Positions 13,088-39,152 of a stretch of DNA of 64,000 nucleotides are shown one piece after another (position 1 is the first letter of the stretch; every line of letters begins with the position of its first letter). The notes beneath the pieces are model-generated. The model saw nothing but the letters and a program-made list of their open reading frames with translations, ran no database searches and had not been told where the DNA came from. A program made the translations under genes and the position numbers. The stretch comes from an uncultured Erythrobacter sp. (lineage in GTDB: Bacteria > Pseudomonadota > Alphaproteobacteria > Sphingomonadales > Sphingomonadaceae), in the NCBI GenBank assembly GCA_947499505.1, contig CANMOQ010000001.1, positions 42,037 to 106,036 of the forward strand, in the 5' to 3' direction.

Positions 13088-13097
13088 GATGCTGCCC

Positions 13098-15254: not shown

Positions 15255-15417
15255 GTATTTTGGTGTGAGGCAAGCCAAGTTTTGCGGCCGATGGTTGGGA
15301 CTTTTCGCAGGGCGTGCGACCGCTGCCATAGGCTTCTCGTAAAGAGCGCGTTTTGGTGGCCCGGGGTTCGGTACAAGGTTGCAGGCTGCGCCTGGGGTGT
15401 TCGGCCTGGCATATGAT

Positions 15418-15434
15418 GCTAACTAAAGACTAAC
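15418..15434 (+). promoter_or_regulatory. 17-nt motif GCTAACTAAAGACTAAC (copy 2)
   Basis: 15 of 17 positions identical to copy 1. About 200 nt upstream of ATG 15636. Confidence 0.4.
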
Positions 15435-15635
15435 TGCTGGCGCTAGTGCTTGATTGCATTAAGACTTTTGTAATCAGAGATCCCCGGCTTAACGTAAATT
15501 TACAACTTCTCATCCCGAGAAGCTGGTGCCAAAGCTGTTTCACTATGATACTGTTTTGGTTATAAAGTAATAATTGCATCGCATCCCTTTGCTGCGAATG
15601 AGGGATGGAATTGCGAATATGGGGTCAGGTCGCGC

Positions 15636-18600
15636 ATGACAAAAAAACAGGCTGCAAGTCGTCACATTCTGGCGCTTGAACCACGGATGATGTTTGACGG
15701 CGCAGGGGTGGTCACCGCTATCACTGCAGACATTGGCCCGATGGCCGTTGCGCCCGGTGAATACACTTTCAACGAAGCGAGCGTTGCGCCTGTAAATCTC
15801 GATATACGCAGCGATATTTCATCAGGGATCGGCGATGATGTCGGCTCGGGGCTGTCCGCTCAGCCGGTTGGTTTTCTATTTGGCAATCGGTCTGAAGGCA
15901 GCGAGGCGCTGCATCCACAGTTCGAATTCCACGATGAGGTGCGCGAAGGCAGCACACCGCGCGCTATTATCGATGCTATGCGCGATTACCGGGCGACCGC
16001 CATGTATGGCGTAGAGCGCGCGCTGGCCGATGGATTCTTTGCAGAGCCTTCTGATGATGCGGTGGTTGCACAGTCTGGCGAAGTGCCGAACGACTTCATC
16101 TTCATCGACACTAGCGTCGACAATTATGAGCAATTGGCCGAGATCTGGGAGGGCCGCGGCACGATTGTGTTTGTAGACGCCAACAGTGACGGCGTTGACC
16201 AGGTTCTCACCGCCCTTGCTGGTGCAAGCGATGTTGGCGCAATCCATTTCGTCAGCCACGGCGAAGACGGCATGTTCTGGCTGGGTGATACCCGGATCGA
16301 CAGCGCAGCCCTGACCGGAGAGCTGGCTTCGGCCTTTGCGTCGATTGGCTCAAAGTTGTCGGCTGACGGCGACATTCTGATTTACGGCTGCGACGTCGGC
16401 AATGATGCCGAGGGTCAGGCCCTGCTCAACAATCTGGCCGCTATCACCGGTGCGGATATCGCCGCATCGATCGATGACACCGGTAGTATCGCTCGCGGAG
16501 GCGATTGGACGCTCGAAAACCGTCTGGGCGTGGTCGAATCTGCTTCACTTGTGGCGCGCGAATGGGGTGGCTTGCTTGCGCCGACGAATATTTCTGCACC
16601 TGCGGACTCGCTCACTGTTCGTGATGGCAGTGGCAATATCATTGCGACTGGCGGTACCGGCTTTGGTAATGCTGGCGGTCGAAGCGGCGATGTTGGTGTC
16701 GGTGGCACCGGCACTTGGGTTAATGTTGGCACAGTCAATGGCCAATCTATCAGCATCAGGGCTACGGTGGTTTCCATCAGTGCCGGCGACACCGTCAGGT
16801 TTGATCGCCCTACGTCAGGCGATGATGATCCGGGCTTCCTGCTGCGATCAAATGGCGGTCCTGTCGCGACAGCTGAGATACGGTGGGACATTTTCTTCAC
16901 GGCGACCGGAGCGCCTGTCGAGATCGATGTTTCTTACACGGTGGCTGACATCGATGGGGTTGGCGGCAACACAAACAGCCGCGAGTTTGTGGTCGTCGAC
17001 ACGGACACGCTCTCATCATTCCAGGCTGCAAATGGCTCGAACGTCGCGTTTGATACAAGTGTCCCCGGCCAGGTGACTGCGTCTGGAACCCAAAATGAAA
17101 GCAGCGGGGTTCCATCGGCTGCACGGTTTAACTGGCTCGATACCAGCAGCTTTACAATCACTTATAATATTGATCCTGCATCGGGTGTTCCGCAGGCTGG
17201 TTTTAGTCACGACGGTGATCTTGACTTCAATCTTGGCACTGGCGGTACGACGGTCTCCATTCCGCGGCTTGATCTCGATAACAATAACAGCACGGCCAGC
17301 GGCTCTGCTTATGAAGGAACCTTCGTCGAAAATGGTTCTGCTGTGGGTATTGTTGATCGCGATGTGCGTATTACCAATCCAAATGGCTCGGTTGAAGGCC
17401 TCACGGTTACTCTGACCAATGCGCAGACTGGTGATGAGCTGTTGGTCAATGGTTCAAACGCTGCGACCGGTACCTTGAATGGTGGGATCAGCTACACCCG
17501 GACGGCAACTGAGATCATATTGACCGGTGCTGCTAACTCGGCCCAGTACCAGAACGCGCTGCGGGCAATTACATTCCAGACTGCGGGCGAGCGTCCAGAT
17601 GAGACGCCGCGCACCATCGATATCAGTTTTGAAAACGCTGCGCTCAATTCCAACGTCGCAACTTCGACGATCAATGTCGTAGAGATCAATGACCCGCCAA
17701 CAGCGGTTAATGACGCGCAGATAACCACCGATGAGGATGTCCCGATCCTCAATATTGACGTACTCGGGAATGATTTTGACGGTGATGGCGATCCGCTGAC
17801 CGTGATCAGCGCCAATGCCAGCAATGGCACTGTCATCATCAATGGTGATGGTACCCTTGCCTATGTCCCGAACTCAAATTTTAGTGGCACTGATACGATT
17901 ACCTACACGATCAGTGATGGTCGGGGCGGCACCGATACAGCGACGGTTCCTATTGTTATCGGCCCGGTTAATGACAATCCGACCACCAATGGCAATCTGC
18001 CACCGCAAACCAATGTCGATGCGCAGCAGGGCATTTTTGTCAATGCCGCCAGCGGTTTCAGCGATGCGGAAGATCCTAACAACCTAACTTACAGTGCGAC
18101 CGGCCTGCCTCCCGGCCTGTCGATCGATCCAAACACCGGGTTTATCACAGGCAATATCGATAATTCTGCAAGCCAAGGCGGCTCTGGCGGTATTTACAAT
18201 GTTGTTGTGACCGCAACCGATTCCGGTGGCCTTACTGCGGAGCAAAACTTCAGCTGGACCGTGACCAATCCAGCACCTCAGGCCAACAATGACGGCGGCT
18301 CTACGCTTGAAGATACGCCAGTGACGTTTGACGTGCTGGCCAATGACCAAGATCCTGATGGTGACGATATTAGCGTCGTCTCGGCCAGCGCGCCGAACGG
18401 CAGTGTTGTCATTAATGCAGACGGCACGATCACATACACACCGAATGCCAATTTCAGTGGCCCTGAAACGATCACCTACACCATCAGCGATGGCGAAGGC
18501 GGAACAAGCACGGCTACCGTCAGTCTGTTTGTGACAGCGCAGAACGATGATCCAGTGGCTGTTGGCTCACTACCACCGCAAGTGAATGATGATGCTGACG

Positions 18601-21600
18601 CCGGGATCAGTGTGCAGACCGCGGGCGGTTTTGCCGACGTGGATAATGCAAACCTTGTTTATTCGGCAACGGGATTGCCTCCGGGTCTCAGTATTGATGC
18701 GAACACGGGTGAAATCACTGGAACGATTGACAACTCAGCCAGCCAAGGCGGCGTGGCAGGAGTTTACAATGTCACCATCACGGCGAACGATAATGTAGGC
18801 GGGGCCCCGGCCACGCAGACATTCAGTTGGACGGTCAGCAACCCTGCGCCGACGGCTGCCAATGACACCGCGACAACTGACGAAGACACGCCCGTCGATA
18901 TCCCGGTTTTGGCCAACGACAATGATCCCGATGGCGATGATCTGAGCATTGTTTCGGCAACCGCTCCCAACGGCACGGTTGTGGTCAACGCTGATGGCAC
19001 CATCACCTACACGCCAAATGCCGATTTCAACGGTACAGACACCATCACTTATACTATTAGTGATGGCGAAGGCGGCACTTCGCAGGCAACTGTTGCGGTA
19101 ACGGTGGGCGCGGTCAACGATCCGCCTGTTCCGGTTGGCGCTTTGCCAGCGCAGACCAATCTGGACGCAGATAGCGGGATTTCTCTGGCAACGGCCGGCG
19201 GTTTTGCGGACAGCGACGATACGAACCTCGTCTACAGCGCGGCTGGTCTGCCGCCGGGCCTATCTATTGATAGCGCCACGGGTGAGATTACTGGCACGAT
19301 TGACAATTCTGCGAGCACTGGTGGAACGGGCGGCGTTTACAATGTCACCGTTACCGCGACCGATCCATCGGGCGAAAGCGCGGATCAGGACTTCAGCTGG
19401 ACGGTTACCAACCCTGCGCCAATTGCAGTGGATGACACCGCCAGCACCACTGAAGACACGCCTGTTCTGATCGACGTCTTGCCGAATGACAGCGATCCTG
19501 ACGGCGACGTTCTGACGGTTATTTCCGCGTTCTCTTCCGTTGGTCAGGCCACGCTAGTCGGCAATCAGATCAACTTTGTCCCGCCTGCCAATTTCAACGG
19601 CACGGCAACCATCACGTACACCATCAGTGATGGCGAAGGCGGCACGTCTGAGGCGACTGTCACGGTTACAGTTGCGCCAGAAAATGACGATCCAGACTCG
19701 ACCCCGATCCCGCCGGTTGATGCGCTCGACGGTGATACAGTTTCTGTGCCGGTTGCGGATGCGTTCAGCGACGTTGACGGCGACACGCTCACCTTCAGCG
19801 CGACTGATCTGCCGCCGGGTCTGACGATTGACCCTGATACAGGCGTTATCTCCGGCACCATCACGCCGGATGCCAGCCAGACCAATGGCGGCGTCTACAC
19901 CGGGACCATCACTGTTGATGATGGCAATGGCGGCACGACAACCGAGACAATCACCTTCAATGTCGCGAACCCGCCGCCAGAGGCGGTGAACGATAACGCC
20001 TCTACCGATGAAGACGTAGCGGTCACCATCGATGTACTGGCCAATGACAGTGATCCGGACGTCGACCCGCTGACAGTGACATCGGCTGATGCGCAAAACG
20101 GCACCACGGTCATCAACGCTGATGGCACGGTCACCTACACGCCAAATCCGGGCTTTAACGGCACGGACACGATCACTTACGAGATTTCGGACGGCAATGG
20201 TGGTACGTCGATTGCGACCGTTACGGTCGTGGTCAATGACATCAATGATACGCCAGAGATCAGCGGCTCGATCGGTGATCAGACCAATCTTGATGCGCAG
20301 GAGATCAATCTGCCCGTCGCTGGCGCCTTCAGTGATCCGGACGGCGATGCGCTCAGCTTCACCGCCATTGGCCTGCCAGCGGGTCTGACGATTGACCCTG
20401 ACACGGGCGTGATCTCTGGCACGATTGATAACAGCGCGAGCCAGGTGAACGGCGGCAGCTACAGCATCACCGTGACAGCTGATGATGGACGCGGCGGGAC
20501 TATATCACAGGACTTTACCTGGACCGTTGCCAACCCGGCGCCGATTGCGGCGAATGATGCGGTGACAACCGACGAAGACACGCCAGTTAATGTCGACGTG
20601 CTCGCCAATGATGTCGATCCAGACGGCGATGATCTGACGGTGATCGAAGCCGAGGCGGGCAATGGCACGGTTACAATCAATGCCGATGGCACATTGGTCT
20701 ACACGCCAAACCCAGATTTCAACGGTACGGACACCATCGTCTACACCATTGATGATGGTGAAGGCGGGGTCTCATCGGCCAGCGTCGATGTAACCGTCAC
20801 ACCGGTCAATGACGGGCCGACGACTGTAGGGCTGCCGAATCAGAGCGGCGAAGACAGCCAGACCGTTTCCATCCCAACCGCCAGCGCGTTTAACGATGTT
20901 GACGGCGATGTTCTGACGTTCAGCGCAGAAGGCCTGCCGCCTGCGCTCTCGATTGATCCAGATACGGGCGTAATCTCTGGCACTTTGGCTTCGGATAGCT
21001 CGCAAAATGGACCGTTTGTGGTGACCGTGACCGCGACCGATCCGTCCGGTGAAGAGGTCAGTACGACCTTTATCTACTCGGTACAAAACGTGCCGCCGAT
21101 CGCGCAGAATGATACCGCGACCACGCCGGAAGATACGCCGGTTACCATAGCGGTTTTGGCCAATGACAGCGACCCTGATGGTGATGCGCTGACCATTACC
21201 AGCGCGAGCGCGGACAATGGCACAGTTGTCGTCAATGCAGATGGCACCGTTACCTTCACGCCTGACCCTGATTTTAATGGTGAGGCGAATGTCACCTACA
21301 CCGTCAGCGATGGTCAGGGCGGCGTTGCGACAGCGACGCTGACCGTCACCGTTACAGCTGAGAACGATGATCCTGCTGCGGTCGATATTCCTGATGTCAC
21401 CAATGAAGACAATCAGTCGGTTTCCATCGCAACGGAGAGCTTCTTTAGCGACGTTGACGGCGATGATTTGACAATAACGGCGGCTGGCCTGCCGCCGGGT
21501 CTCTCAATCGATCCGACGACTGGCATCATCTCCGGCACGCTCGACATTGATGCGAGCCAGGGCAGCCCATATACCGTCACGCTCACCGCTGATGATGGCA

Positions 21601-24600
21601 ATGGCGGCACAGTGTCGCAAGACTTCGTTTGGACCGTCACCAACCCGGCACCAACCGCCGTCAATGACAACGCGAGCGTCGATGAAGACAGCAGTGTCAA
21701 TGTCGATGTGCTCGGCAATGACAATGATCCTGATGGCGATCCGCTGACCGTCACCAGCGCAACCGCGCCAAATGGCACTGTGGTGATCGAGGCTGATGGC
21801 ACGCTGACTTACACGCCAAATCCTGATTTCAACGGCGAAGACACGATCACTTACACGATCGATGATGGCAATGGCGGCACCTCTACCGCCGCAGTTATCG
21901 TCACCGTCAATCCGATCAATGATGATCCGGTTGCGGTCGATGATGCGGTCACCACCGATGAAGACACGCCGGTTACCATCGGCGTGCTGGGCAATGACAG
22001 CGATGTTGATGGCGATGATCTGACCGTCACGACTGCAACCTCACCTGATGGCACGGTTACGATCAATCCAGATGGCACGTTGGAGTTTGTGCCTGATCCG
22101 AACTTCAACGGCACGACGACAATCTCTTACGAGATTTCGGACGGCAATGGCGGCACAGCGACTGCGACGGTCACCGTTACGGTCAACCCGATCAACGATC
22201 CGCCGGTTGCGAACCCTGATGCGGCGACCACTGATGAAGACACGCCGGTTAATGTACCTCTGATCGGTAATGACACCGATGCTGATGGTGACGCACTGAC
22301 CGTGACCGCTGCAACAGCGGTCAATGGCACTGTCGTAATTAACCCAGATGGTAGCGTTGACTACACGCCGAACCCGGACTTTAACGGCACAGATACAATC
22401 ACTTACACCATAAGTGATGGCAATGGCGGGTTCTCAACCTCGACCGCAACCATCACGGTGAACCCGGTTAACGATGATCCGGTGGCGGCCCCAATCGCGC
22501 CGCAAACCAATGATGATAGCACGCCTGTCACGCTCGATATCAGCGGCAATTTCTCTGACGTTGACGGCGATGATCTGACGTTCAGCGCCACCGGTCTGCC
22601 GCCCGGCCTCAGCATTGATGCCAATGGCAATATCACAGGCACACTTGATCCAGACGCCTCGCAAGGCGGCCCGGCGGGTGACGGGGTGTACGAAGTCACA
22701 GTGACAGCCGATGATGGCAATGGTGGCACGGTCGATACGACCTTCATTTGGACGGTGAACAACCCACCGCCAGAGGCCGTGGATGACACCGCGACGACCG
22801 ATGAAGACACGCCAGTCAACATTCCTGTGCTCGCCAATGATAGCGATCCGGATGGCGATCCGCTGACCGTGACGGCGGCTGATGCGGGCAATGGCACGGT
22901 TGTGATCGAGGCGGATGGCACGGTCACCTACACGCCGAATGAAGACTTCAACGGCACGGATACGATCACCTACACCATCAGCGATGGCAATGGTGGAACC
23001 TCCACCGCGACCGTGACTGTCACGGTTGATCCGGTGAACGATGATCCGGTTGTCACGCCGATTGCGCCGCAAGATAACGTCGACAGCGCGGACGTGTCGC
23101 TGCCAACAGCGGGCAATTTCAGCGATGTTGACGGCGATACGCTGACCTTTAGCGCTACCGGCCTGCCAGCGGGCCTCTCGATCGACCCCAACACGGGCGA
23201 GATCACCGGCACAATTGCTGCGGATGCAAGCCAAGGCGGTCCGGCGGGTGACGGTATCTACTCCGTCACCGTCACGGCGGACGATGGCAATGGCGGCACG
23301 GTCGATACGACCTTCACCTGGACCGTCACCAACCCGCCGCCAGAGGCGGTGGACGATGCGGCAACGACTGACGAAGACACGCCGGTCAATATTCCGGTGC
23401 TCGCCAATGATAATGACCCAGATGGCGATCCGCTGACGGTTACCTCGGCAACCGCGCCAAATGGAACGGTTGTGATCGAGGCGGATGGCACGGTCACCTA
23501 TACGCCGAATGAAGACTTTAACGGCACCGATACAATCACCTACACCATCAGTGATGGCAATGGCGGCACCTCGACGGCGACTGTCACCGTAACGGTTGAT
23601 CCGGTGAACGACGATCCGGTGGCTGACACGCCGCTGGCCAACCTTGCCAATATCGATAGCGCGACCGTCAATGTTCCGGTCGCCGGTAACTTCAGCGATG
23701 TCGATGGCGATGGCCTGACGTTTGGTGCGACAGGCCTGCCTCCAGGTCTCATTATTGATGCGGCTGGTAATATCACCGGCACCATCGATCCCGACGCCTC
23801 GCAAGGCGGGCCAGCGGGTGATGGCATTTACACCGTCAGCGTGACAGCGGATGATGGCAATGGCGGCACGGTAACCAGCAGTTTTGCCTGGACCGTCACC
23901 AACCCGCCGCCAGTGGCCACGGATGATACCGCAACCACGCCAGAGGACACGCCGGTCAATATCGATGTGCTGGCGAACGACAATGATCCCGATGGCGATG
24001 CGCTCACGGTGACATCGGCAATCGCGCCAAACGGTACGGTCGTAATCGAAGCCGATGGCACGGTTACCTACACGCCGAATGAAGACTTCAACGGCACGGA
24101 TACGATTACCTACACGATCAGCGATGGGGAGGGCGGCACCACCACGGCGACCGTCACTGTGACAGTTGATCCGGTCAATGACGACCCGGTCGCTGACCCG
24201 CAGCTGACCAATCAGACCGACGATGACGCCGATGTCATCTCGCTCGATGTGTCTGGCAATTTCAGCGATGTTGATGGTGATACGCTCACCTTCACGGCGA
24301 CCGGCCTGCCGGGCGGACTGTCGATTGACGCCAATGGTGTGATCACTGGCACGCTGGATGCGGATGCATCGCAGGGCGGGCCGAACAGCGATGGACTCTA
24401 CACCGTCACCGTCACGGCCGATGATGGCAACGGCGGCACGACCACATCAACCTTCGTGTGGACCGTGAACAACCCACCGCCGCTTGCTGCGCCTGATACG
24501 GCCAGCACGACGGAAGACATACCGGTCACTGTCGATGTGCTGGCCAATGACAATGATCCAGACGGCGATGCGCTGACTGTGACGGAGGCGAACGCCGCCA

Positions 24601-27600
24601 ATGGCAGCGTTTTGATCAATGCCGACGGCACGATCACTTACACGCCGGATGCAAACTTCAACGGCACGGATACGGTGATCTACACCATCAGCGATGGTGA
24701 GGGCGGTACCTCGACCTCGACCGTGACGATCACTGTTGGCGCGGTAAATGACGATCCAGAAACAATTGGTCTGCCAGATCTCACCGATGGCAATAACGAG
24801 TTGATCGGTGTTCCGCTCGCCCCGGCGTTTAGCGATGCAGAAGGCGACACGCTTACCTTCTCAGCGACAGGCCTACCGGATGGTCTGTCGATTGACCCGG
24901 CCACAGGCGAAGTTACTGGCACTACGACGGGCACAGCCTCAAGTGGAGGGCCGCTGAGCGATGGTGTCTACACCGTCACAGTCACTGCTGACGATGGCAA
25001 TGGCGGAAGCGTAAGCACGACCTTCACCTGGACGATTAACAACGAGCCGCCAACGGCGATCGACGATAACTTCGTCGGTACGGAAGACACGCCACAAGTG
25101 CTCGACGTGCTGGCGAACGATATTGATCCTGATGCCGATCCGATGACTCCAATCGTTATCATCGATGCGCAGGCGACCAATGGCACCGCTGTGGTCAATG
25201 CGGATGGCACGATCACTTTCACGCCGGACCCTGACTTTAACGGCACGGCGACTGTCACTTACACGATCGAAGATGCGAACGGCGATCCAGCGACAGCAAT
25301 CGCGACCATCGTTATCGCGCCAGAAAACGATGCTCCTGATGCGACACCGCTGCCCGACCGCGGCGATGAGGACGGCGATGCTGTTTCCATCGATGCCGGC
25401 GTATTGTTCTCTGACATCGAAGGCGACACGCTGACGTTCAGCGCGACTGATCTTCCAGCGGGCCTGACGATTGATCCTGGTACTGGCATTATCAGCGGGA
25501 CGATTGATCCCGATGCCAGCCAAGTGAACAATGGCGTCTATCAGACCACCATTACCGCTGATGATGGCAATGGCGGCACGACCGATGTGGCTTTTGTCTG
25601 GACGGTGACCAACCCTGGCCCGACGGCCGCGGATGACACGGCCTCGACTGCTGAAGACACGCCAATCCCGTCGATTGATGTACTCGGCAATGATAATGAC
25701 CCGGATGGCGATGCGCTGACCGTGGTGTCTGCCAGCGCACCAAACGGCACAGTTGTCATCAATGCTGACGGCACTTTGGCCTACACGCCGGATCCAGACT
25801 TTAACGGCACCGACACGATCACCTATCAGATCACTGATGGTCAGGGCGGCACGTCCACAGCCATAGTTACAGTGACGGTAGGCGCTGAAAATGACGATCC
25901 GACTGCGCCGCCGCTATCGGCCCTCATCAATGATGATGCCGATGTTGTTGCTTTGGATCTCGCGCCCGGCTTTGCCGATGTCGACGGTGATCCGCTAACG
26001 TTTACCGCGACTGGCCTACCGCCAGGCCTCACCATTGATGCCGCTGGCAATGTCACCGGAACTATCGATCCGGATGCTTCACAGGGCGGGCCGAACGGCG
26101 ATGGCATCTACGAAGTCACCGTCACCGCTGATGATGGCAATGGTGGTACGGTGGATGCGGTATTCACCTGGACCGTTGGCAACCCAGCGCCGCTCGCGGT
26201 GGATGACACGGCGATCACCGATGAGGACACGCCGGTCAATATCCCCGTTCTGGCCAATGACAATGATCCAGACGGCGATCCGCTGAGCGTAACTCAGGCG
26301 AGCGCTGGTAATGGCACCGTTGTGATCGAAGCTGATGGCACGGTCACTTACACGCCGGATGAAGACTTCAACGGCACCGATACGATCACTTACGAGATTT
26401 CGGATGGCAATGGCGGCACCTCGACAGCGACGGTGACCGTAACCGTCAATCCGATCAATGATGATCCGGATGTAACGCCGCTCGCCCCGCGCGAGAATGT
26501 CGATAGCGCAGTCGTGAACGTGCCGACCGCTGGCAATTTCAGCGATGTCGATGGCGACACTCTGACATTTGATGCCACGGGCCTGCCAACTGGCCTCACG
26601 ATTGATCCAGCCACGGGCGTGATCTCTGGCACGATTGATCCATCTGCCTCCATTGGTGGACCGAATGGTGATGGCACTTACGAAGTCACTGTGACGGCTG
26701 ACGACGGCAATGGCGGTACCGTGTCCACCACCTTTAGCTGGACAGTGACCAATCCAGTGCCAGTGGCGGTGAACGACACTGCAACCACCACAGAAGACAC
26801 AGCGACCAATATCGATGTGCTGGCCAATGACAGCGATCCTGATGGCGATCCGCTGACCGTGGTTACTGCCTCTGCGGCGAACGGCACGGTCACGATCCTG
26901 CCCGATGGCACGATTGATTACACGCCGAACCCGGATTTCAACGGGACGGATACGATCTCTTACACGATCAGCGACGGCAATGGCGGCACGGCTTCGGCGC
27001 TCGTCACGGTCACCGTTGATCCAGAGAATGATCCACCAGTGGCCGTTAATGATACGACCACGACCGACGAAGACACGTCGGTTACAATCCCGGTCCTCTC
27101 CAATGACAGCGATGTTGATGGCGATGATTTGACGGTAACCGATGCGACCGCGCCAAACGGCACGGTTACGATCAACCCAGATGGCACGGTGACCTACACG
27201 CCGGATCCCGATTTCAACGGGACCGACACGATCACCTACACCATTGATGATGGCAATGGCGGCACCGACACTGCGACGATCACTGTCGTGGTTGCGCCGG
27301 TCAATGATGCGCCGATTGCGGCGCCTGACACTGCAGACACGGATGAGGACACACCGGTCACCATCCCTGTTCTCGCCAATGACAGCGATGTTGACGGCGA
27401 TCCGCTGACGGTCACCGATGCGACCTCGCCTGATGGCACGGTCACTATCAATCCGGATGGTACGATCACGTTTGAGCCTGATCCGAACTTCAACGGACCG
27501 GCCACCATCACCTACACCATCGATGATGGCATGGGCGGCACCGCAACCTCGACTGTTACGGTCAATGTTGCGCCGGTTAACGATCCGCCTGTTGCGGAAG

Positions 27601-29741
27601 ATGACACGGCAACAACCGACGAAGACACGTCGGTTACTGTTCCGGTACTCGCCAATGACAGCGACGCTGATGGCGATCCGCTGACCATTACGGAGGCGAC
27701 CGCGCCCAACGGTACGGTTGTGATCAACCCAGATGGCACGGTCACCTACACGCCGGATGAGAACTTCAACGGCACCGATGTGATCACCTACACCATCTCT
27801 GATGGCAATGGCGGGTTTGATACGGCCACGCTGACGGTCACGGTTGATCCGGTGAACGACGTGCCGGTGGCTCAGGATGACGCCGCGACTGGAACGGAAG
27901 ATGAGCCGCTCACCATTCCTGTGCTCGCCAATGACGGCGATGCTGACGGTGATCCGCTGACAGTTACAACGGCGACTTCGCCAGATGGCACGGTTACGAT
28001 CAACCCGGATGGCACGATCACCTTTGTGCCGAACCCCGACTTCAACGGGCCAACCACCATCACCTACACGATCGATGATGGCATGGGCGGCACAGCGACG
28101 GCGACAGTCACGGTCGATATTGTCGCCGTGAACGATCCGCCTGTGGGTGAGCCGGATACGGCTGTCACGGATGAAGACACGCCTATCACCATTCCGGTGC
28201 TCGCGAATGACAATGACCCGGATGGCGATCCGCTGACTGTTGTCTCGGCCAATGCGCCGAATGGCACGGTTACGATCAACCCAGATGGCACGATCACTTA
28301 CACGCCGAACCCGGACTTCAACGGCACCGATACGATCACCTATCAGGTGAGCGACGGCATGGGCGGCTTTGACACGGTGACGGCAACCGTCACGGTCAAT
28401 CCGGTCAATGATCCGCCGGTTGCGGGCAATGACGTCACCAGCGTGAATGAGGACAGCGAAGTCACCATCCCAGTGCTGGTCAACGACACTGATGCCGATG
28501 GCGATCCGCTGACGGTGACAACCGCAACCGCCACCAACGGTACGGTTACGATCAACCCTGATGGCACGATCACCTATGTGCCGAACCCCGATTTCTTCGG
28601 TCAGGATACGATCACTTACACGATCAGTGATGGCAATGGCGGCACGTCAACAGCGACCGTCGCGGTTGAGGTTATCAACACCAACGAGCCGCCGGTTGAT
28701 GAGCCTGAAGCTCTCAACGTAATCAGCGGCACCGACACGATCATTAATGTGCTCGACAATGCGACCGATCCAGATGGTGACCCTCTGGAAGTGGTGATCG
28801 CACTCGTCGACATTGGCGAAGTGGTGATCAATCCTGATGGCACGCTTACTTATAGCGCGCCAGCAGACTTCTTCGGCGAAGTGACGATCCGCTACTTCAT
28901 CTCTGATGGTCAAGGCGGCTTTGTGGAGAGCTTTGCCACGATCACCGTGGTTGAGGCTGCGGCTGATATCGGCTTCCTGATCGGCGAGGAGCCTGATCCA
29001 GGCATTCCTAATGCCTATCCGGTTGATCGAGTGCTGGACCAGAGCGACGCCTTTATCAGCACGCCGCTGATCATCCTCGATACGGTCAATGATTTCCGCT
29101 CGCTTGGCGGCATGGGCACGCTCAACGTCGATCAGCCATTGCTGAACGCAGTGAACGGCCTGCGCTCCTTGAACGGCATTGGCGGATTTGACGCCAATGG
29201 CAGCCCGATTGACGATGTGGTTGGCTATATCGATCACATCCGCGACCTGCGCTTTGGTGTGGACCGTCTGTTCGATCCGCGCTTTGGCGACTTCCTGCCA
29301 GAGGCGCTGACCGGCTTCTCCGTGCGGCAACTCGATACCGGCAGCGACCAGGTCATGATCGAGAGTATTTCGCGCGACCGTGTGGTCTATGTCGAAATGC
29401 GCGATATTGGCGCGGACGATGCCCCTCGGATCACCGAATATCAGCTGGTTACGCGCGATGGTGCGCCGCTGCCTGATTGGATCCGGATGGATGCTCGCGG
29501 TCTGGCGATCATTGAACGTCCCGTTGATGCAGAGACGCTCAGACTGGTTGTTCGCGCAATCCGGGCTGATGGCGAAGTGATTGAGATCCCTGTTGTTATT
29601 CAGGGCGCAACCGGTGAAATACAGCTGGATGAGGCGATTGCAGAAGCAGTGGCCAGGGCTGAAACACTTGATACGATGATGGCACGCGCCAGTGGCGAAG
29701 CCGATGACGAAGCAAGCAAACTGCTTGCAGCTTTTAGTTGA
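15636..29741 (+). CDS. Giant (4701 aa) repetitive cadherin-like / Ig-like adhesin-type surface protein
   Basis: Single uninterrupted 14,106-nt ORF. N-terminus has ALEPRMMFDGAG and no hydrophobic Sec leader. Contains a DUF4347-like domain, then about 25 modules of ~92 aa (DEDTPV..VLANDxDPDGDxLTV..NGTV..DGT.TYTPN.DFNGTDTITYTISDG.GG) interleaved with about 15 He_PIG-like modules (LTFSATGLPPGLSIDPxTGxIxGTI). The ~260-aa non-repetitive C-terminal domain has no GGxGxD nonapeptides. Confidence 0.95.
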   Translation: MTKKQAASRHILALEPRMMFDGAGVVTAITADIGPMAVAPGEYTFNEASVAPVNLDIRSDISSGIGDDVGSGLSAQPVGFLFGNRSEGSEALHPQFEFHDEVREGSTPRAIIDAMRDYRATAMYGVERALADGFFAEPSDDAVVAQSGEVPNDFIFIDTSVDNYEQLAEIWEGRGTIVFVDANSDGVDQVLTALAGASDVGAIHFVSHGEDGMFWLGDTRIDSAALTGELASAFASIGSKLSADGDILIYGCDVGNDAEGQALLNNLAAITGADIAASIDDTGSIARGGDWTLENRLGVVESASLVAREWGGLLAPTNISAPADSLTVRDGSGNIIATGGTGFGNAGGRSGDVGVGGTGTWVNVGTVNGQSISIRATVVSISAGDTVRFDRPTSGDDDPGFLLRSNGGPVATAEIRWDIFFTATGAPVEIDVSYTVADIDGVGGNTNSREFVVVDTDTLSSFQAANGSNVAFDTSVPGQVTASGTQNESSGVPSAARFNWLDTSSFTITYNIDPASGVPQAGFSHDGDLDFNLGTGGTTVSIPRLDLDNNNSTASGSAYEGTFVENGSAVGIVDRDVRITNPNGSVEGLTVTLTNAQTGDELLVNGSNAATGTLNGGISYTRTATEIILTGAANSAQYQNALRAITFQTAGERPDETPRTIDISFENAALNSNVATSTINVVEINDPPTAVNDAQITTDEDVPILNIDVLGNDFDGDGDPLTVISANASNGTVIINGDGTLAYVPNSNFSGTDTITYTISDGRGGTDTATVPIVIGPVNDNPTTNGNLPPQTNVDAQQGIFVNAASGFSDAEDPNNLTYSATGLPPGLSIDPNTGFITGNIDNSASQGGSGGIYNVVVTATDSGGLTAEQNFSWTVTNPAPQANNDGGSTLEDTPVTFDVLANDQDPDGDDISVVSASAPNGSVVINADGTITYTPNANFSGPETITYTISDGEGGTSTATVSLFVTAQNDDPVAVGSLPPQVNDDADAGISVQTAGGFADVDNANLVYSATGLPPGLSIDANTGEITGTIDNSASQGGVAGVYNVTITANDNVGGAPATQTFSWTVSNPAPTAANDTATTDEDTPVDIPVLANDNDPDGDDLSIVSATAPNGTVVVNADGTITYTPNADFNGTDTITYTISDGEGGTSQATVAVTVGAVNDPPVPVGALPAQTNLDADSGISLATAGGFADSDDTNLVYSAAGLPPGLSIDSATGEITGTIDNSASTGGTGGVYNVTVTATDPSGESADQDFSWTVTNPAPIAVDDTASTTEDTPVLIDVLPNDSDPDGDVLTVISAFSSVGQATLVGNQINFVPPANFNGTATITYTISDGEGGTSEATVTVTVAPENDDPDSTPIPPVDALDGDTVSVPVADAFSDVDGDTLTFSATDLPPGLTIDPDTGVISGTITPDASQTNGGVYTGTITVDDGNGGTTTETITFNVANPPPEAVNDNASTDEDVAVTIDVLANDSDPDVDPLTVTSADAQNGTTVINADGTVTYTPNPGFNGTDTITYEISDGNGGTSIATVTVVVNDINDTPEISGSIGDQTNLDAQEINLPVAGAFSDPDGDALSFTAIGLPAGLTIDPDTGVISGTIDNSASQVNGGSYSITVTADDGRGGTISQDFTWTVANPAPIAANDAVTTDEDTPVNVDVLANDVDPDGDDLTVIEAEAGNGTVTINADGTLVYTPNPDFNGTDTIVYTIDDGEGGVSSASVDVTVTPVNDGPTTVGLPNQSGEDSQTVSIPTASAFNDVDGDVLTFSAEGLPPALSIDPDTGVISGTLASDSSQNGPFVVTVTATDPSGEEVSTTFIYSVQNVPPIAQNDTATTPEDTPVTIAVLANDSDPDGDALTITSASADNGTVVVNADGTVTFTPDPDFNGEANVTYTVSDGQGGVATATLTVTVTAENDDPAAVDIPDVTNEDNQSVSIATESFFSDVDGDDLTITAAGLPPGLSIDPTTGIISGTLDIDASQGSPYTVTLTADDGNGGTVSQDFVWTVTNPAPTAVNDNASVDEDSSVNVDVLGNDNDPDGDPLTVTSATAPNGTVVIEADGTLTYTPNPDFNGEDTITYTIDDGNGGTSTAAVIVTVNPINDDPVAVDDAVTTDEDTPVTIGVLGNDSDVDGDDLTVTTATSPDGTVTINPDGTLEFVPDPNFNGTTTISYEISDGNGGTATATVTVTVNPINDPPVANPDAATTDEDTPVNVPLIGNDTDADGDALTVTAATAVNGTVVINPDGSVDYTPNPDFNGTDTITYTISDGNGGFSTSTATITVNPVNDDPVAAPIAPQTNDDSTPVTLDISGNFSDVDGDDLTFSATGLPPGLSIDANGNITGTLDPDASQGGPAGDGVYEVTVTADDGNGGTVDTTFIWTVNNPPPEAVDDTATTDEDTPVNIPVLANDSDPDGDPLTVTAADAGNGTVVIEADGTVTYTPNEDFNGTDTITYTISDGNGGTSTATVTVTVDPVNDDPVVTPIAPQDNVDSADVSLPTAGNFSDVDGDTLTFSATGLPAGLSIDPNTGEITGTIAADASQGGPAGDGIYSVTVTADDGNGGTVDTTFTWTVTNPPPEAVDDAATTDEDTPVNIPVLANDNDPDGDPLTVTSATAPNGTVVIEADGTVTYTPNEDFNGTDTITYTISDGNGGTSTATVTVTVDPVNDDPVADTPLANLANIDSATVNVPVAGNFSDVDGDGLTFGATGLPPGLIIDAAGNITGTIDPDASQGGPAGDGIYTVSVTADDGNGGTVTSSFAWTVTNPPPVATDDTATTPEDTPVNIDVLANDNDPDGDALTVTSAIAPNGTVVIEADGTVTYTPNEDFNGTDTITYTISDGEGGTTTATVTVTVDPVNDDPVADPQLTNQTDDDADVISLDVSGNFSDVDGDTLTFTATGLPGGLSIDANGVITGTLDADASQGGPNSDGLYTVTVTADDGNGGTTTSTFVWTVNNPPPLAAPDTASTTEDIPVTVDVLANDNDPDGDALTVTEANAANGSVLINADGTITYTPDANFNGTDTVIYTISDGEGGTSTSTVTITVGAVNDDPETIGLPDLTDGNNELIGVPLAPAFSDAEGDTLTFSATGLPDGLSIDPATGEVTGTTTGTASSGGPLSDGVYTVTVTADDGNGGSVSTTFTWTINNEPPTAIDDNFVGTEDTPQVLDVLANDIDPDADPMTPIVIIDAQATNGTAVVNADGTITFTPDPDFNGTATVTYTIEDANGDPATAIATIVIAPENDAPDATPLPDRGDEDGDAVSIDAGVLFSDIEGDTLTFSATDLPAGLTIDPGTGIISGTIDPDASQVNNGVYQTTITADDGNGGTTDVAFVWTVTNPGPTAADDTASTAEDTPIPSIDVLGNDNDPDGDALTVVSASAPNGTVVINADGTLAYTPDPDFNGTDTITYQITDGQGGTSTAIVTVTVGAENDDPTAPPLSALINDDADVVALDLAPGFADVDGDPLTFTATGLPPGLTIDAAGNVTGTIDPDASQGGPNGDGIYEVTVTADDGNGGTVDAVFTWTVGNPAPLAVDDTAITDEDTPVNIPVLANDNDPDGDPLSVTQASAGNGTVVIEADGTVTYTPDEDFNGTDTITYEISDGNGGTSTATVTVTVNPINDDPDVTPLAPRENVDSAVVNVPTAGNFSDVDGDTLTFDATGLPTGLTIDPATGVISGTIDPSASIGGPNGDGTYEVTVTADDGNGGTVSTTFSWTVTNPVPVAVNDTATTTEDTATNIDVLANDSDPDGDPLTVVTASAANGTVTILPDGTIDYTPNPDFNGTDTISYTISDGNGGTASALVTVTVDPENDPPVAVNDTTTTDEDTSVTIPVLSNDSDVDGDDLTVTDATAPNGTVTINPDGTVTYTPDPDFNGTDTITYTIDDGNGGTDTATITVVVAPVNDAPIAAPDTADTDEDTPVTIPVLANDSDVDGDPLTVTDATSPDGTVTINPDGTITFEPDPNFNGPATITYTIDDGMGGTATSTVTVNVAPVNDPPVAEDDTATTDEDTSVTVPVLANDSDADGDPLTITEATAPNGTVVINPDGTVTYTPDENFNGTDVITYTISDGNGGFDTATLTVTVDPVNDVPVAQDDAATGTEDEPLTIPVLANDGDADGDPLTVTTATSPDGTVTINPDGTITFVPNPDFNGPTTITYTIDDGMGGTATATVTVDIVAVNDPPVGEPDTAVTDEDTPITIPVLANDNDPDGDPLTVVSANAPNGTVTINPDGTITYTPNPDFNGTDTITYQVSDGMGGFDTVTATVTVNPVNDPPVAGNDVTSVNEDSEVTIPVLVNDTDADGDPLTVTTATATNGTVTINPDGTITYVPNPDFFGQDTITYTISDGNGGTSTATVAVEVINTNEPPVDEPEALNVISGTDTIINVLDNATDPDGDPLEVVIALVDIGEVVINPDGTLTYSAPADFFGEVTIRYFISDGQGGFVESFATITVVEAAADIGFLIGEEPDPGIPNAYPVDRVLDQSDAFISTPLIILDTVNDFRSLGGMGTLNVDQPLLNAVNGLRSLNGIGGFDANGSPIDDVVGYIDHIRDLRFGVDRLFDPRFGDFLPEALTGFSVRQLDTGSDQVMIESISRDRVVYVEMRDIGADDAPRITEYQLVTRDGAPLPDWIRMDARGLAIIERPVDAETLRLVVRAIRADGEVIEIPVVIQGATGEIQLDEAIAEAVARAETLDTMMARASGEADDEASKLLAAFS
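16090..16520 (+). other. DUF4347-like N-terminal domain of the giant protein
   Basis: FIFIDTSVDNYEQLAE...VFVDANSDGVDQVLTALAG...IHFVSHGEDGMFWLGDT...ILIYGCDVGNDAEGQALLNNLAAITGADIAASIDDTG. Recognised from memory of this family, not searched. Confidence 0.55.
17700..28960 (+). repeat. Coding tandem-module array: (C-H)x7, C, C, (C-H)x8, Cx8. C is a cadherin-like ~92-aa module; H is a He_PIG-like ~97-aa module
   Basis: Counted by reading the translation. Each C module has an acidic DxDxDGD putative Ca-binding motif. Modules are delimited by (V/I)ND(D/P)P or NP(A/P)P junctions. Confidence 0.8.
22772..24481 (+). repeat. Three consecutive 570-nt C+H units with the highest mutual similarity
   Basis: Unit starts at 22772, 23342 and 23912 (next at 24482), exactly 570 nt apart. 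The protein is nearly identical across the C modules, but the DNA differs at many synonymous third positions (for example acctacacg/acctatacg, gacttcaac/gactttaac). Confidence 0.8.
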
Positions 29742-29766: not shown

Positions 29767-31263
29767 ATGAATAAGGGACTTGCACTGGTAAGCGTATCGA
29801 CACTCTTCCTGGGTGCCTGCGCAACTGTACCCGAGCCGTTCACGGCGGCAGAATTGAACGAGACGGCAGCCAGCAATTTTGAGCGGGTTGATGTGGATCA
29901 GGAGCCGGTTACGGCGCCGATTGACCTTTACGAGGCGATGGCCCGCTCGCTGAAATACAATCTCGACTACAAGGTTGAGCTCATGGAGATTGCGCTGCGC
30001 GACCGCGAGCTTGATCTTCAGCGTTACGATATGCTGCCGCAATTGGTTGCCAGCGCTGGCTATGCCGGACGCAACAACTTCTCTGGCGCGAGCTCGCTCT
30101 CGTTGATCACCCGGCGGCAATCGCTGGAGCCATCAACCTCGCAGGAACGCGACCTGTTTACCGCAGATCTCGCACTCAGCTGGGACGTGCTTGATTTCGG
30201 CCTGTCTTATGTCCGGGCCAAGCAAGGCGCGGATGAAGTTCTGATCGCGCAGGAGCGCCGCCGCAAGGTTGCCAACCGCGTGATTGAAGATGTGCGGTCC
30301 TCCTATTGGCGTGCGGTCAGCGCCGAACGCCTGCTGACCAAGCTGCAAGAGCTGGAAGATTCGGTCACCACAACGCTGCAAAGTTCAGAGCGTTTGGCCG
30401 AGCGGCGTCTGTCTGCTCCGCTTACCGCGCTGACTTATCAGCGTGAACTGCTGGAAATTCAGGCGCAAATTCGCAAGCTTCAGCGCGAGCTGGTGGTTGC
30501 AAAGGCGCAATTGGCCGCGCTCATGAACCTGCGCCCTGGCACTGAGTTCTCGCTCGCTTTGCCAGATCGCACCAACACTTTGCCTGCGGTCAATTACCAA
30601 GGCGAAGACATGATGATGACGGCGCTGCTCAATCGTCCAGAGCTGCGCGAGGTTAGCTATCGCCAACGGATCAATTCGCGCGAATTGGATGCGGCATTGC
30701 TTTCAGCTCTGCCGAGCTTCCGCGGTGTCCTTGGCGTCAACGTCGATTCCAATGACTTCCTGTTTAACAATGACTGGATGAACTACGGCGCCCGCGCCAG
30801 TTGGAACGTCCTCAACCTGTTCCGTTTGCCAGCGCATAAGAAGGCCGTGCGCGCACAGGAAGATCTGCTGGAGCAGCGCGAATTGGCGCTGACCATGGCG
30901 GTGATGACACAGGTTCATGTCTCGCGTGCACGCTTTAGCCATCTGAGCGAAGAACTCGATACGGCATCACGCCAGATGAAGGTGCAGGACAAGATCCTCG
31001 ATCAAATCCGTTCCGGCCATAAGGCTGGCGCAATGAGCCGCCAAACGCTGCTGCGTGAAGAGATGAACACGCTCGCCGCAGAGGTGAAATATGACATCGC
31101 CTATGCAGAGGCGCAAAACGCCTATGCTGGTCTGTTTGCCTCCATGGGCATCGACGAGTTTAGTCCAAACGTGACCGGACGCGAAGATGTCGCTACTCTG
31201 CGCGCATCACTGGAGCAAATGTGGCAGGACCGCGAAGCTGCGGTAAAGCTGTCTGGAAGTTAA
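29767..31263 (+). CDS. TolC-family outer-membrane efflux lipoprotein
   Basis: ORF track start is 29692. I prefer ATG 29767 (MNKGLALVSVSTLFLGAC, with lipobox), preceded by GAAGGTGAG, 25 nt after the giant gene stop. Two OEP-like coiled-coil halves are recognisable. Confidence 0.85.
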   Translation: MNKGLALVSVSTLFLGACATVPEPFTAAELNETAASNFERVDVDQEPVTAPIDLYEAMARSLKYNLDYKVELMEIALRDRELDLQRYDMLPQLVASAGYAGRNNFSGASSLSLITRRQSLEPSTSQERDLFTADLALSWDVLDFGLSYVRAKQGADEVLIAQERRRKVANRVIEDVRSSYWRAVSAERLLTKLQELEDSVTTTLQSSERLAERRLSAPLTALTYQRELLEIQAQIRKLQRELVVAKAQLAALMNLRPGTEFSLALPDRTNTLPAVNYQGEDMMMTALLNRPELREVSYRQRINSRELDAALLSALPSFRGVLGVNVDSNDFLFNNDWMNYGARASWNVLNLFRLPAHKKAVRAQEDLLEQRELALTMAVMTQVHVSRARFSHLSEELDTASRQMKVQDKILDQIRSGHKAGAMSRQTLLREEMNTLAAEVKYDIAYAEAQNAYAGLFASMGIDEFSPNVTGREDVATLRASLEQMWQDREAAVKLSGS

Positions 31264-31266: not shown

Positions 31267-32262
31267 ATGAGTGACATTGAGCAGGTGGACGAGGGATCAC
31301 CGCCCGCAGAAGATGGAAACCGCAAGCTGTTGATCGGCGGCGGCGTGCTTGCTGTGGCTGCAGCCATTGCAGGGGTCGTCTACGCGGGCAGCGGCGACAC
31401 GCAGTGGTCGGATAATGCGACCGTGGCCTCGGCAGAGCAGGCGGAACTGGCAGCGGGCGAGGGCAGCGATGCCGCCCCGGAACCTGAGCCAGAACCGGTG
31501 CTAGAGGCGCGCGGCGTGATCGCGGCAAAGAACGAGAGCACAGTGGCCTCGCGCATGACCGCGCGGATCACCTCTATGCCGTACCGCGAGGGGCGCAGCT
31601 TTGGCAAAGGCGCTTTGCTTGCACGGTTTGATTGCTCCACCATTCAGGCTGAATTGAACGCGGCCCGCGCCGCAACCGCCGCCTATCAAAAGACCTATGA
31701 GACCAACGTTGAACTCGACAGTTATGAGGCTGTTGGCAAAAATGAAGTGGCGGTCTCGCGCGCCAATCTTGGCCGGGCGCAGGCAGAGGCCAATGCGGTC
31801 TCGGCCCAGCTGCGCGACTGCGCGGTCTATGCGCCATTCGCTGGCACTGTGGTGGAAGAGATCGCGAGTCGCGGCGAAGTGGCCGCCAGTGGTCAGCCGC
31901 TGCTGCGCATTCAAAGCGGCGGCGATCTGGAAGCCGATCTGATCGTTCCCAGCAATTGGCTGACCTGGCTTGAGCCAGGGGCGAAGTTTGACTTCGTGAT
32001 TGACGAGACAGGCGCTAGCATTACCGGCGTCGTCACCCGGTTGGGCGCATCGGTTGACCCGGTCAGTAAGACGATCCGCATCGGAGCCAATATTGATCGC
32101 GGCGATGCTTTGGTCCTGCCCGGGATGAGCGGCACGGCGACGTTCGAAAAGCCAAGCGAGGCACCTGCGGAGACAGAAGAAGCGGGCGAAGGCGCGGCTG
32201 AAGGCGAAGCGAGCGGAGCGGCCACGGAAGGGGCTGAAGCCGATGGCAGCCAGCCAACCTGA
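31267..32262 (+). CDS. Membrane-fusion protein (HlyD/RND-adaptor type) 1
   Basis: Starts 3 nt after the upstream stop. N-terminal TM anchor LLIGGGVLAVAAAIAGVVY. Lipoyl-like halves (GVIAAKNESTVASRMTARITSM; VYAPFAGTVVEEIASRGEVAASGQPLLRI) flank a short coiled coil. Acidic Glu/Ala/Gly C-terminal tail. Confidence 0.8.
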   Translation: MSDIEQVDEGSPPAEDGNRKLLIGGGVLAVAAAIAGVVYAGSGDTQWSDNATVASAEQAELAAGEGSDAAPEPEPEPVLEARGVIAAKNESTVASRMTARITSMPYREGRSFGKGALLARFDCSTIQAELNAARAATAAYQKTYETNVELDSYEAVGKNEVAVSRANLGRAQAEANAVSAQLRDCAVYAPFAGTVVEEIASRGEVAASGQPLLRIQSGGDLEADLIVPSNWLTWLEPGAKFDFVIDETGASITGVVTRLGASVDPVSKTIRIGANIDRGDALVLPGMSGTATFEKPSEAPAETEEAGEGAAEGEASGAATEGAEADGSQPT

Positions 32263-35874: not shown

Positions 35875-36797
<923 letters not shown>

Positions 36798-39133: not shown

Positions 39134-39152
39134 GGTCAGGACAGATAATCGT

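Follow-up and report, generated by a model that had tools for sequence, protein, structure and literature searches.

How does a bacterium export a fiber-like protein of several thousand residues that carries neither a hydrophobic leader nor RTX repeats? This question is raised by a locus in an uncultured Erythrobacter sp. (contig CANMOQ010000001.1), where we analyzed a window of 64 kb, meaning the whole stretch of 64,000 nucleotides. The window encodes a protein of 4,701 residues, referred to below as the giant, and its gene is the first of a tightly packed five-gene unit on one strand. The other four genes, referred to as the cassette, encode a TolC-family lipoprotein, two membrane-anchored adaptors (adaptors 1 and 2) and an M50/site-2-protease-type metalloprotease fused to a third adaptor domain (the M50-adaptor). 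Our preferred reading, to which we assign a probability of roughly 0.55, is that the giant is the dedicated cargo of an export and processing apparatus made by the four cassette genes, which would resemble a type I secretion system (T1SS) but lack an ATP-binding cassette (ABC) transporter. The features are collected in Table 1.

The gene of the giant is genuine and encodes an extremely acidic fiber of 40 immunoglobulin-like (Ig-like) modules. Its 14.1-kb open reading frame (ORF) is uninterrupted, as a sequence-only reading of this DNA had stated, and the protein contains 608 Asp, 150 Glu, 56 Arg, 4 Lys and 1 Cys, for a net charge of about -698. Cadherin-like (C) modules are marked by 24 NDxDxDGD anchors and one degenerate last copy (NATDPDGD), and He_PIG (H) modules by 15 GLPxGLxID anchors. 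The order of these anchors exactly reproduces the two-module grammar that had been proposed, with anchors spaced 185-191 aa apart in C-H units and 92 aa apart in C-only units. The profile searches agree: Pfam returns DUF4347, overlapping Big_9, Cadherin_5 and Cadherin_4 matches, and He_PIG in 15 stretches (610.5 bits), while NCBIfam assigns the tandem-95 repeat (NF012211) to 25 stretches with 1887.8 bits, above the model cut-off. The giant also contains 34 DxDGD motifs and is probably calcium binding; motifs and composition alone suggest that calcium stiffens it and that it is located at the cell surface.

Three further family assignments were considered and are not adopted here. The score for NF045619 (BapA/Bap/LapF) exceeds its cut-off (285.6 versus 180 bits) but is summed over 22 repeat stretches, which cover only profile positions ~154-229 and leave the C-terminal part of the model unmatched. 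The NF038112 score likewise comes from summed repeat matches. Kinship with the DDxP proteins was considered since the modules of the giant end in NDDP or NDPP, but the repeats of that family measure 136-304 aa and are linked to T1SS/RTX (PMC7730722).

None of the familiar export signals is recognizable in the giant. The maximum Kyte-Doolittle value in the first 80 aa is 1.22 (19-residue window), in keeping with the reported lack of a hydrophobic leader, and no transmembrane-like segment occurs along the whole 4,701 aa. The RTX nonapeptide is absent as described, with no GGxGxD, GG.G.D or related pattern in the giant and no Pfam HemolysinCabind match. NCBIfam models for T1SS C-terminal targets or retention modules match neither the full giant nor its isolated termini at E values up to 10. 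A cryptic RTX or T1SS signal family, named beforehand as a finding that would overturn the sequence-only reading, was thus found by neither regular expressions, Pfam nor NCBIfam. The proposal of a nontextbook export signal and route is supported, and it is strengthened by the conserved downstream cassette without an ABC transporter. The route is still based on TolC and adaptors and is hence a variant of type I secretion rather than an unrelated one. The giant may also carry a cryptic C-terminal export signal, for which a weakly conserved C-terminal helix motif would be the candidate.

The four cassette genes follow the giant with almost no spacing. The TolC start lies 26 nt after the stop of the giant and adaptor 1 begins 4 nt after TolC, while adaptors 1 and 2 overlap by 20 nt and adaptor 2 and M50 by 4 nt. 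The mechanical ORF of the TolC-like gene starts at a GTG (29692), and the likely start is an ATG at 29767. HlyD_3 is found by Pfam in three proteins downstream of the giant, and adaptor 1 passes TIGR01730 (101.7 bits; cut-off, 94.9). The type I secretion model type_I_hlyD (TIGR01843) gives 42.8 bits at best (cut-off, 208.65), and type_I_sec_TolC is likewise far below its cut-off; NCBIfam holds no specific model for any cassette protein. A PDB search with the cytoplasmic domain of adaptor 2 yielded nothing significant.

The M50 domain takes up the N-terminal two-thirds of the M50-adaptor, and the HlyD-type adaptor the remaining third. The M50 domain scores 30.3 bits against PF02163 (27.2 required) and has about 5-7 hydrophobic segments. 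The motifs HELGH (213-217) and NPFMRFDG (309-316) are essentially invariant in the homolog alignment (F314, >=90%), with HExxH in 79 of 79 and NxxPxxxxDG in 78 of 79 homologs. The best named relatives of the domain are leader peptidases of ribosomally synthesized and posttranslationally modified peptides (RiPPs), namely, daptide_HExxH (NF041824; E 1.2e-44) and YydH/LiaK (NF058609; E 8e-9). Scores stay below both equivalog cut-offs (153 versus 300 bits and 35.5 versus 225 bits, respectively); the fusion is an M50-family protein related to the RiPP leader peptidases but not a member of them. At E<=1e-30, the M50-adaptor family has 4,475 representatives when clustered at 50%, and almost all of the best 150 are full-length proteins.

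No ABC domain was found in the major ORFs of the window, no ORF in the window combines Walker A with LSGGQ, and none of the four cassette proteins contains a P-loop.

Table 1. Coordinates of the giant, its domains and the downstream cassette in the window
Feature	Position (nt)	Strand	Details
Giant fiber gene	15636..29741	+	ATG start; 4,701 aa; no internal stops (ORF list and translation)
LEPR-XLL motif, aa 10-30 (L14-E15-P16-R17-MMFDGAG)	15663..15725	+	After short basic stretch K3, K4, R9, H10
DUF4347 (PF14252), aa 155-306	16098..16553	+	Pfam 150.5 bits versus 24.6 gathering; E 4.6e-44
Putative dyad, His208 and Cys252	His208, 16257-16259; Cys252, 16389-16391	+	Alignment to Tce1
Beta-rich region, aa 320-700	16593..17735	+	No family assigned; homologous stretches also stand behind the DUF4347 of other giants
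Module array (C-H)x7, C, C, (C-H)x8, Cx8	17688..28985	+	25 tandem-95/cadherin-like and 15 He_PIG modules
C-terminal domain	28998..29738	+	AlphaFold2: aa 4455-4560 low confidence; ~4560-4665 beta-sandwich; 4678-4700 terminal helix
TolC-family outer-membrane factor, lipoprotein MNKGLALVSVSTLFLGAC	29767..31263	+	Pfam OEP E 1e-37; lipobox
Adaptor 1, 331 aa; N-terminal transmembrane segment (aa 21-39) and periplasmic RND_mfp-type adaptor	31267..32262	+	TIGR01730
Adaptor 2, 463 aa; ~200-aa cytoplasmic N-domain, transmembrane segment (aa 204-222), periplasmic HlyD_3	32243..33634	+	
M50/site-2-protease-type metalloprotease fused to C-terminal HlyD-type adaptor (aa ~436-719), 719 aa	33631..35790	+	

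We surveyed the surroundings of the M50-adaptor gene by a degenerate-pattern scan with one genome per species, using the best 80 of 583 relatives' loci. These loci come from Sphingomonadales, Hyphomicrobiales, Azospirillum, Gammaproteobacteria, a Nitrosospira-labeled metagenome-assembled genome and many Nitrospira/Nitrospirales, among them Ca. N. defluvii. The order TolC-adaptor 1-adaptor 2-M50 is colinear wherever DNA exists, across all 80 loci and two phyla. Unsupervised clustering of the ORFs recovers five conserved genes only, namely, the M50-adaptor (80/80), adaptor 2 (77/80), adaptor 1 (73/80), the TolC-like gene (67/80) and the repeat protein (60 loci), and no further conserved partner gene emerged from the 80 loci. 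An ABC-like ORF lies within 10 kb in only 6 of them, at inconsistent positions.

A LEPR/DUF4347 N-terminus or the C-terminal domain of the giant adjoins the cassette at 61 of the 80 loci. The C-terminal domain (~230 aa) stands at the extreme C-terminus of a giant directly before TolC at 32 loci, which comprise all Sphingomonadales together with Hyphomicrobiales, Aestuariivirgaceae and Gammaproteobacteria; its description as unique therefore does not hold. At 30 loci, a DUF4347 N-terminus begins right after, or divergently before, the cassette, and one locus (L036) unites both ends in a single 2,062-aa protein. The other 19 loci include 12 that are cut by contig ends, 4 with a different large ORF upstream and 3 without a giant. 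Nitrospirales often have two LEPR/DUF4347 paralogs flanking one cassette (L033, L038-L042 and L050; also L037, L053, L057 and L066). A third gene order, TolC-adaptor1-[giant]-adaptor2-M50, in which the substrate gene lies inside the cassette, was seen when starting from DUF4347 (L100, L140 and L147). Cassette and giant stay linked in three gene orders across Pseudomonadota and Nitrospirota, at protein identities of 37-45%.

A survey from the DUF4347 side covered 80 metagenome loci. Cassette parts are visible in about 22 of them, and a LEPR variant stands before almost all N-terminal DUF4347 domains. Word-index protein searches with the termini of the giant returned short fragments only (33 and 23 matches), so we judged the breadth of its family from the DNA loci. 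The lack of RTX repeats extends to other cassette-linked giants, as 17 complete ones have 0-1 GGxGxD each and the giants of Escherichia coli have none.

In E. coli, precisely this set of five genes is bracketed by insertion sequence (IS) elements, and it is present in 24 of 5,426 complete genomes with >=99% identity. The sites, 21 on plasmids and 4 on chromosomes, are flanked by IS1, IS5 and Tn3 remnants, and their contexts are a 69-kb IncF plasmid, a 259-kb plasmid and the chromosome (examples are L161 2310-22061 in NZ_CP081687, at 44829-64580 of that record, L164 on the NZ_CP147109 chromosome and L165 on pKL53-L). The giants encoded there measure 3,668, 4,459 and 4,473 aa. The five genes appear to move as a unit in this species, which would offer a tractable model. 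In Variovorax paradoxus VAI-C (L163/L166; CP063167 19413-68132), a 16,239-aa tandem-95 giant carries both an MALEARYMFDAAA leader and a DUF4347 domain. The same cassette comes next, with a complete gsp cluster for type II secretion immediately downstream of it.

What the members of this family share most clearly is the N-terminus. The giant begins MTKKQAASRHILALEPRMMFDGAG, in which the motif line reads L-A-L-E-P-R-M-M-F-D-G-A, and its isolated N-terminus (first 60 aa) scores 19.6 bits against NF012209, "LEPR-XLL" (cut-off, 17). The LEPR..FDGA motif that the sequence-only reading linked to DUF4347 giants is this same family, and it precedes 89 DUF4347 N-termini in the fetched loci. Among 87 unique LEPR-DUF4347 N-termini, and counting only positions left free by the search pattern, Pro follows Glu in 69%, Ala stands at +9 in 87% and Thr at +13 in 68%. 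Four sequences from Nitrosomonadaceae and others (P0132, P0137, P0139 and P0141) have an ESPR-like segment, MNKxFKSLWNExxGTYVAAxE (Pfam PF13018), ahead of the basic stretch and the LEPR motif, so that LEPR there stands where type V secretion proteins have the hydrophobic core of the signal peptide.

The DUF4347-like domain that had been noticed behind the N-terminus was found by Pfam with a wide margin (Table 1). An AlphaFold2 model of the N-terminal part, based on a 33-sequence alignment, reaches a confidence score (pLDDT) of >95 for aa 150-300 with a dip to ~79 at aa 281-290. Residues 35-103 are disordered in this model, and a flexible linker of ~120 aa separates DUF4347 from the leader. Foldseek against the PDB places Tce1/PA0256 (9qpe_G) first (E 3.7e-5; TM score, 0.64 on the target; ~17% identity), followed by legumain, caspase-3/6/7 (E 4e-4 to 7e-3; probability, 0.8-1.0) and a GPI transamidase subunit; all listed matches after Tce1 are clan CD peptidases. 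The TM scores for legumain and the caspases are low, at 0.2-0.37, on a 330-aa query that includes about 150 disordered residues.

The putative catalytic residues stand in IHFVSH208G and ILIYGC252D, each after a hydrophobic strand, and they align with THG and YGC of Tce1. G209 and C252 occupy near-invariant columns of the 33 homologs, whose consensus retains SHG and a near-invariant YGC. Cys252 is the sole cysteine of the 4,701 residues, and the E. coli giants also contain only a single Cys, located in this same motif. His186 and Cys240 of Tce1 have been equated with the dyad of the TcdB protease domain, and Tce1 has been called a putative protease (PMC13323088); DUF4347 was published in 2026 as a putative cysteine protease for a type VI secretion effector. 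The modeled domain of the giant is accordingly best described as a predicted caspase-like (clan CD) fold with a putative His/Cys dyad, in the same fold class as the C80 domains of MARTX and TcdA/TcdB and as Tce1 (PDB 9QPE). As in MARTX, a predicted clan CD domain is built into a giant exported protein, but here it is N-terminal on an adhesin-like fiber rather than inside a toxin, as in MARTX and TcdA/TcdB. Homologous beta-rich sequence follows DUF4347 in other giants as well; the corresponding ~400-aa part had been called beta-rich and unique, and only the former description stands. A PDB sequence search with aa 320-700 gave nothing significant.

The C-terminus is variable between lineages at its extreme end, whereas the N-terminus is constant. 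The giant ends ...EADDEASKLLAAFS, and its terminal helix ends DDEASKLLAAFS. From aa 4456 onward, the last ~246 aa have no Pfam or NCBIfam match, and a PDB search with a C-terminal profile returned nothing significant. The beta-sandwich is modeled with pLDDT 76-91, and Foldseek of the C-terminal model gave generic Ig-like matches only, none below E 1e-3. A bipartite motif nevertheless recurs, consisting of [GLT][FL][STAR]xQ[LIVMF], mostly 24-34 residues from the end, and a following acidic-x-x-L-hydrophobic-x-A-[LF] stretch. Its first part is present in 12 of 18 non-Sphingomonadales cassette-linked proteins, and the carriers include L051, L055, L064, L072, L078, L090, L091, L100, L147 and L163. 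Its counterpart in the window is TLDTMM...DDEASKLLAAFS (29600-29738). The motif is seen in 12 of 26 sequences, compared with a roughly estimated ~0.01 chance matches per sequence, a post hoc count with a pattern set after the data were seen. Instead of the window's C-terminal domain, the Nitrospira giants end in a conserved hydrophobic segment (GYVxWLLRSGVLLTALLSxVPAWQFxNPL) together with a basic cluster and a DDSLExMFE-like motif, an arrangement resembling a membrane anchor or sorting signal.

Taken together, these features suggest how an ABC-less apparatus could work. The TolC-like lipoprotein, the two anchored adaptors and the M50-adaptor fusion would build an envelope-spanning duct for the fiber, with the M50 membrane domain as the sole candidate for an inner-membrane component of the export machine. 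The N-terminal basic stretch and LEPR-XLL may be recognized, and possibly cleaved, by the M50 domain or the cytoplasmic adaptor domains. We favor the leader as the element recognized because conservation is far higher at the N-terminus than at the C-terminus and because the M50 domain is related to leader peptidases, and leader recognition is here modeled by analogy on those RiPP enzymes. Folded DUF4347 might then plug the duct like a LapA-type retention module, process itself, or both, thereby governing retention versus release, and its His/Cys pair could cut the fiber free. Extracellular Ca2+-driven folding of the modules would supply directionality as a ratchet, which is the only driving element to find support in the sequence, through the DxDGD motifs.

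The direction of export is indicated in both senses. Export of the N-terminus first is favored by the universal leader and the putative C-terminal anchors of Nitrospira. Export of the C-terminus first is favored by the terminal helix motif, by the LEPR-less neighbor of the M. gryphiswaldense pMSR-1 cassette described below and by a Vibrio giant that combines LEPR-XLL with C-terminal RTX (PMC10868602). A bolder form of the proposal, which we advance only tentatively and consider possible rather than probable, is that the five genes constitute a distinct and widespread secretion pathway, guided by a leader, serving proteins of up to about 16,000 residues and driven by a Ca2+ ratchet without an ABC ATPase. 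In the same joint reading, M50 would remove or tether the leader, and the clan CD domain would govern maturation or release.

Several observations weigh against a dedicated ABC-less apparatus. We know of no precedent for moving 4,701 to 16,239 residues without an ATPase, and gene neighborhood is the basis on which cassette and giant are linked. Three loci with ample DNA (L049, L069 and L074) show no giant. On pMSR-1 of M. gryphiswaldense (L162 14490-22076), the cassette follows a 492-aa ELWxxDGT repeat protein that lacks LEPR and DUF4347 but contains a He_PIG-like domain and ends in a helix rich in Q and A. The gene of this protein may be a remnant that has lost its 5' part, or the protein may be a substrate without a leader. 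NF012209 is marginal on the full-length giant (13.9 bits versus 17). An ABC transporter may be encoded, unlinked, outside the 64-kb window, and the conserved C-terminal helix motif would fit a conventional C-terminal signal. Finally, a Vibrio giant whose C-terminus bears RTX and serralysin domains carries LEPR-XLL too (PMC10868602). The motif is therefore not confined to ABC-less export, and its role may be in retention instead of targeting.

The strongest competing explanation is conventional type I secretion of a non-RTX cargo, in which an HlyB-type ABC protein encoded elsewhere reads the C-terminal beta-sandwich and helix. The linked TolC and adaptors would then be its duct, LEPR-XLL and DUF4347 a LapA-like retention module, and M50 a LapG-like cutter. 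The explanation is favored by the general pattern that, to our knowledge, every experimentally characterized TolC-dependent protein exporter is powered by an ABC protein and reads a C-terminal signal (for a review, see PMC8277102). It also gains from the helix modeled at aa 4678-4700, from the post hoc motif in 12 of the 18 proteins outside Sphingomonadales and from the two cases in which RTX repeats accompany LEPR-XLL or DUF4347. The first is the Vibrio giant, and the second is a metagenome locus (L097) with a 1,972-aa DUF4347 protein that has no LEPR, 46 RTX nonapeptides and a typical RTX C-terminus, with no cassette in view. This single locus (n = 1) hints that RTX and the M50 cassette may be alternative partners of DUF4347 proteins.

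We nevertheless regard conventional secretion as unlikely, although not by far. No ABC gene is present in 64 kb here or near 74 of the 80 cassettes, and the IS-bounded unit of E. coli moves without one. No T1SS C-terminal model matches, TIGR01843 stays at <=42.8 bits where 208.65 is needed, and the C-termini differ by lineage, with a putative hydrophobic anchor in Nitrospira, while the N-terminus does not. An ABC dimer at the inner membrane would also leave three adaptors and a fused membrane domain unexplained.

The cassette could alternatively be a processing, anchoring or quality-control device that cleaves or tethers the LEPR leader while translocation proceeds by another route. The M50 relatives are indeed leader peptidases rather than transporters, the catalytic motifs are invariant, and a type II secretion cluster lies beside the Variovorax cassette. 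We consider this improbable: a TolC-family duct with three adaptors is what characterizes a trans-envelope conduit, a Sec/Tat leader for a two-step route is missing from the giant, and ORF clustering of the 80 loci shows no other secretion genes kept nearby.

That the neighborhood arose by chance, with the cassette being an unrelated efflux pump or peptide exporter, is very improbable. The RND_mfp-type annotation of adaptor 1 would suit it, as would the size of the M50-adaptor family (4,475 representatives), of which the best 80 genomic loci were inspected. A chance association is hard to reconcile with a linkage maintained at 37-45% identity over two phyla, three gene orders and IS-bounded islands, and no RND, MFS or ABC pump gene is present to partner the adaptors. 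An assembly artefact of collapsed or expanded repeats, the other refutation anticipated by the sequence-only reading, has a negligible chance and is ruled out as far as sequence can show, for although the gene is highly repetitive, its self-matches are just 64-74% identical in DNA with a longest exact direct repeat of 41 nt, two other, independent Erythrobacter assemblies (L015 and L005) are colinear with its 3' 6.1 kb at 88-90% identity and unchanged length, and intact orthologs of 3,668-16,239 aa are present in complete genomes.

An ABC-less variant of type I secretion, our preferred reading, places the giant close to several known systems without identity to any. LapA of Pseudomonas, SiiE and BapA of Salmonella and MpIBP of Marinomonas are also acidic fibers of several thousand residues with Ig- or cadherin-like Ca-binding modules and no Sec leader; their genes adjoin a TolC-family duct and an HlyD-family adaptor, and they have a special module at the N-terminus and a special region at the C-terminus. 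Unlike these adhesins, the giant has no RTX repeats, no match to T1SS C-terminal or retention-module models and no adjacent ABC gene. Three adaptor-domain proteins, one of them fused to M50, replace the single adaptor of the LapA type, and the N-terminus consists of LEPR-XLL and a predicted clan CD protease-like domain instead of a retention module cleaved by LapG. Because RTX repeats, a C-terminal signal model and a linked ABC gene are all absent, we do not file the giant under the T1SS adhesins of the LapA/SiiE type.

The cassette M50 domain shares HExxH and NxxPxxxxDG in a polytopic membrane domain with the RiPP leader metalloproteases (NF041824 and NF058609) and the site-2 proteases. Unlike the RiPP enzymes, it is fused to a periplasmic HlyD-type adaptor and encoded with TolC and a giant, not with a small peptide and an ABC exporter. 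The cassette also resembles AcrAB-TolC, MacAB-TolC, EmrAB-TolC and HlyBD-TolC in that an outer-membrane factor and periplasmic adaptors are encoded together, adaptor 1 passing the RND_mfp model, but it differs from tripartite pumps and T1SS in having no RND, MFS or ABC energizer, so that the M50 domain is its sole polytopic inner-membrane protein. The giant itself belongs to the catalogued but functionally undescribed LEPR-XLL, DUF4347 and tandem-95 families. It carries the signatures of both NF012209 and NF012211, the names that annotation pipelines would use, which are sequence labels without a described function. A limited search of the literature accessible to us found no description of the cassette or of its coupling to LEPR/DUF4347 giants, and one may exist elsewhere.

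The remainder of the window is not part of the module. The nearest relatives of the window proteins are from Erythrobacter spp., with L015 reaching 99% identity in one gene. Conservation with the module does not extend to the genes beyond 35,970. In L015, the closest genome, whose cassette is 93-99% identical, ~7.3 kb of extra DNA (L015 12157-19491) corresponds to window 35790-35970 and lies between the M50-adaptor gene and the homolog of ORF 35970-37046, itself only 67% identical, so the region at the module's right border is variable. On the left, a DUF1501/DUF1800 pair (11666-14996, - strand) is oriented divergently to the giant, with 640 nt of intergenic DNA in between, and is not kept with the module in other loci. 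Rfam showed no riboswitch or other RNA family upstream of the giant (14900-15750) at E<=1, and none at the gathering threshold when the whole window was scanned; scans for promoters and terminators around the operon gave counts not above those of shuffled sequences.

Farther out, five tryptophan-halogenase-family genes (one a partial match) are located at 14-4067, 55684-57201 and 61308-62828, clustered at both window ends with two TonB-dependent receptor genes (4205-7369 and 58411-61185). At 37973-41294, the gene of a SelD-associated pyridine nucleotide-disulfide oxidoreductase (TIGR03169-like) and a 773-aa ORF share 160 nt at the mechanical start of the latter; the C-terminal ~480 aa of this ORF are a FAD-dependent disulfide reductase, and its true start is probably further downstream.

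A module combining giant RTX-less fibers, a duct, three adaptors and an intramembrane metalloprotease without an ATPase recurs in Alpha-, Beta- and Gammaproteobacteria, in Nitrospirota and on E. coli plasmids. If it is self-sufficient, it would represent a new way for bacteria to pass proteins that rank among their largest through two membranes. The LEPR-XLL motif, DUF4347 in giants and thousands of proteins that bear the annotation "HlyD family / site-2 protease" would then gain a function, with a testable system in E. coli. If it is not self-sufficient, the cassette would still be a new accessory layer of giant T1SS adhesins, adding leader recognition and proteolytic control of retention and release.

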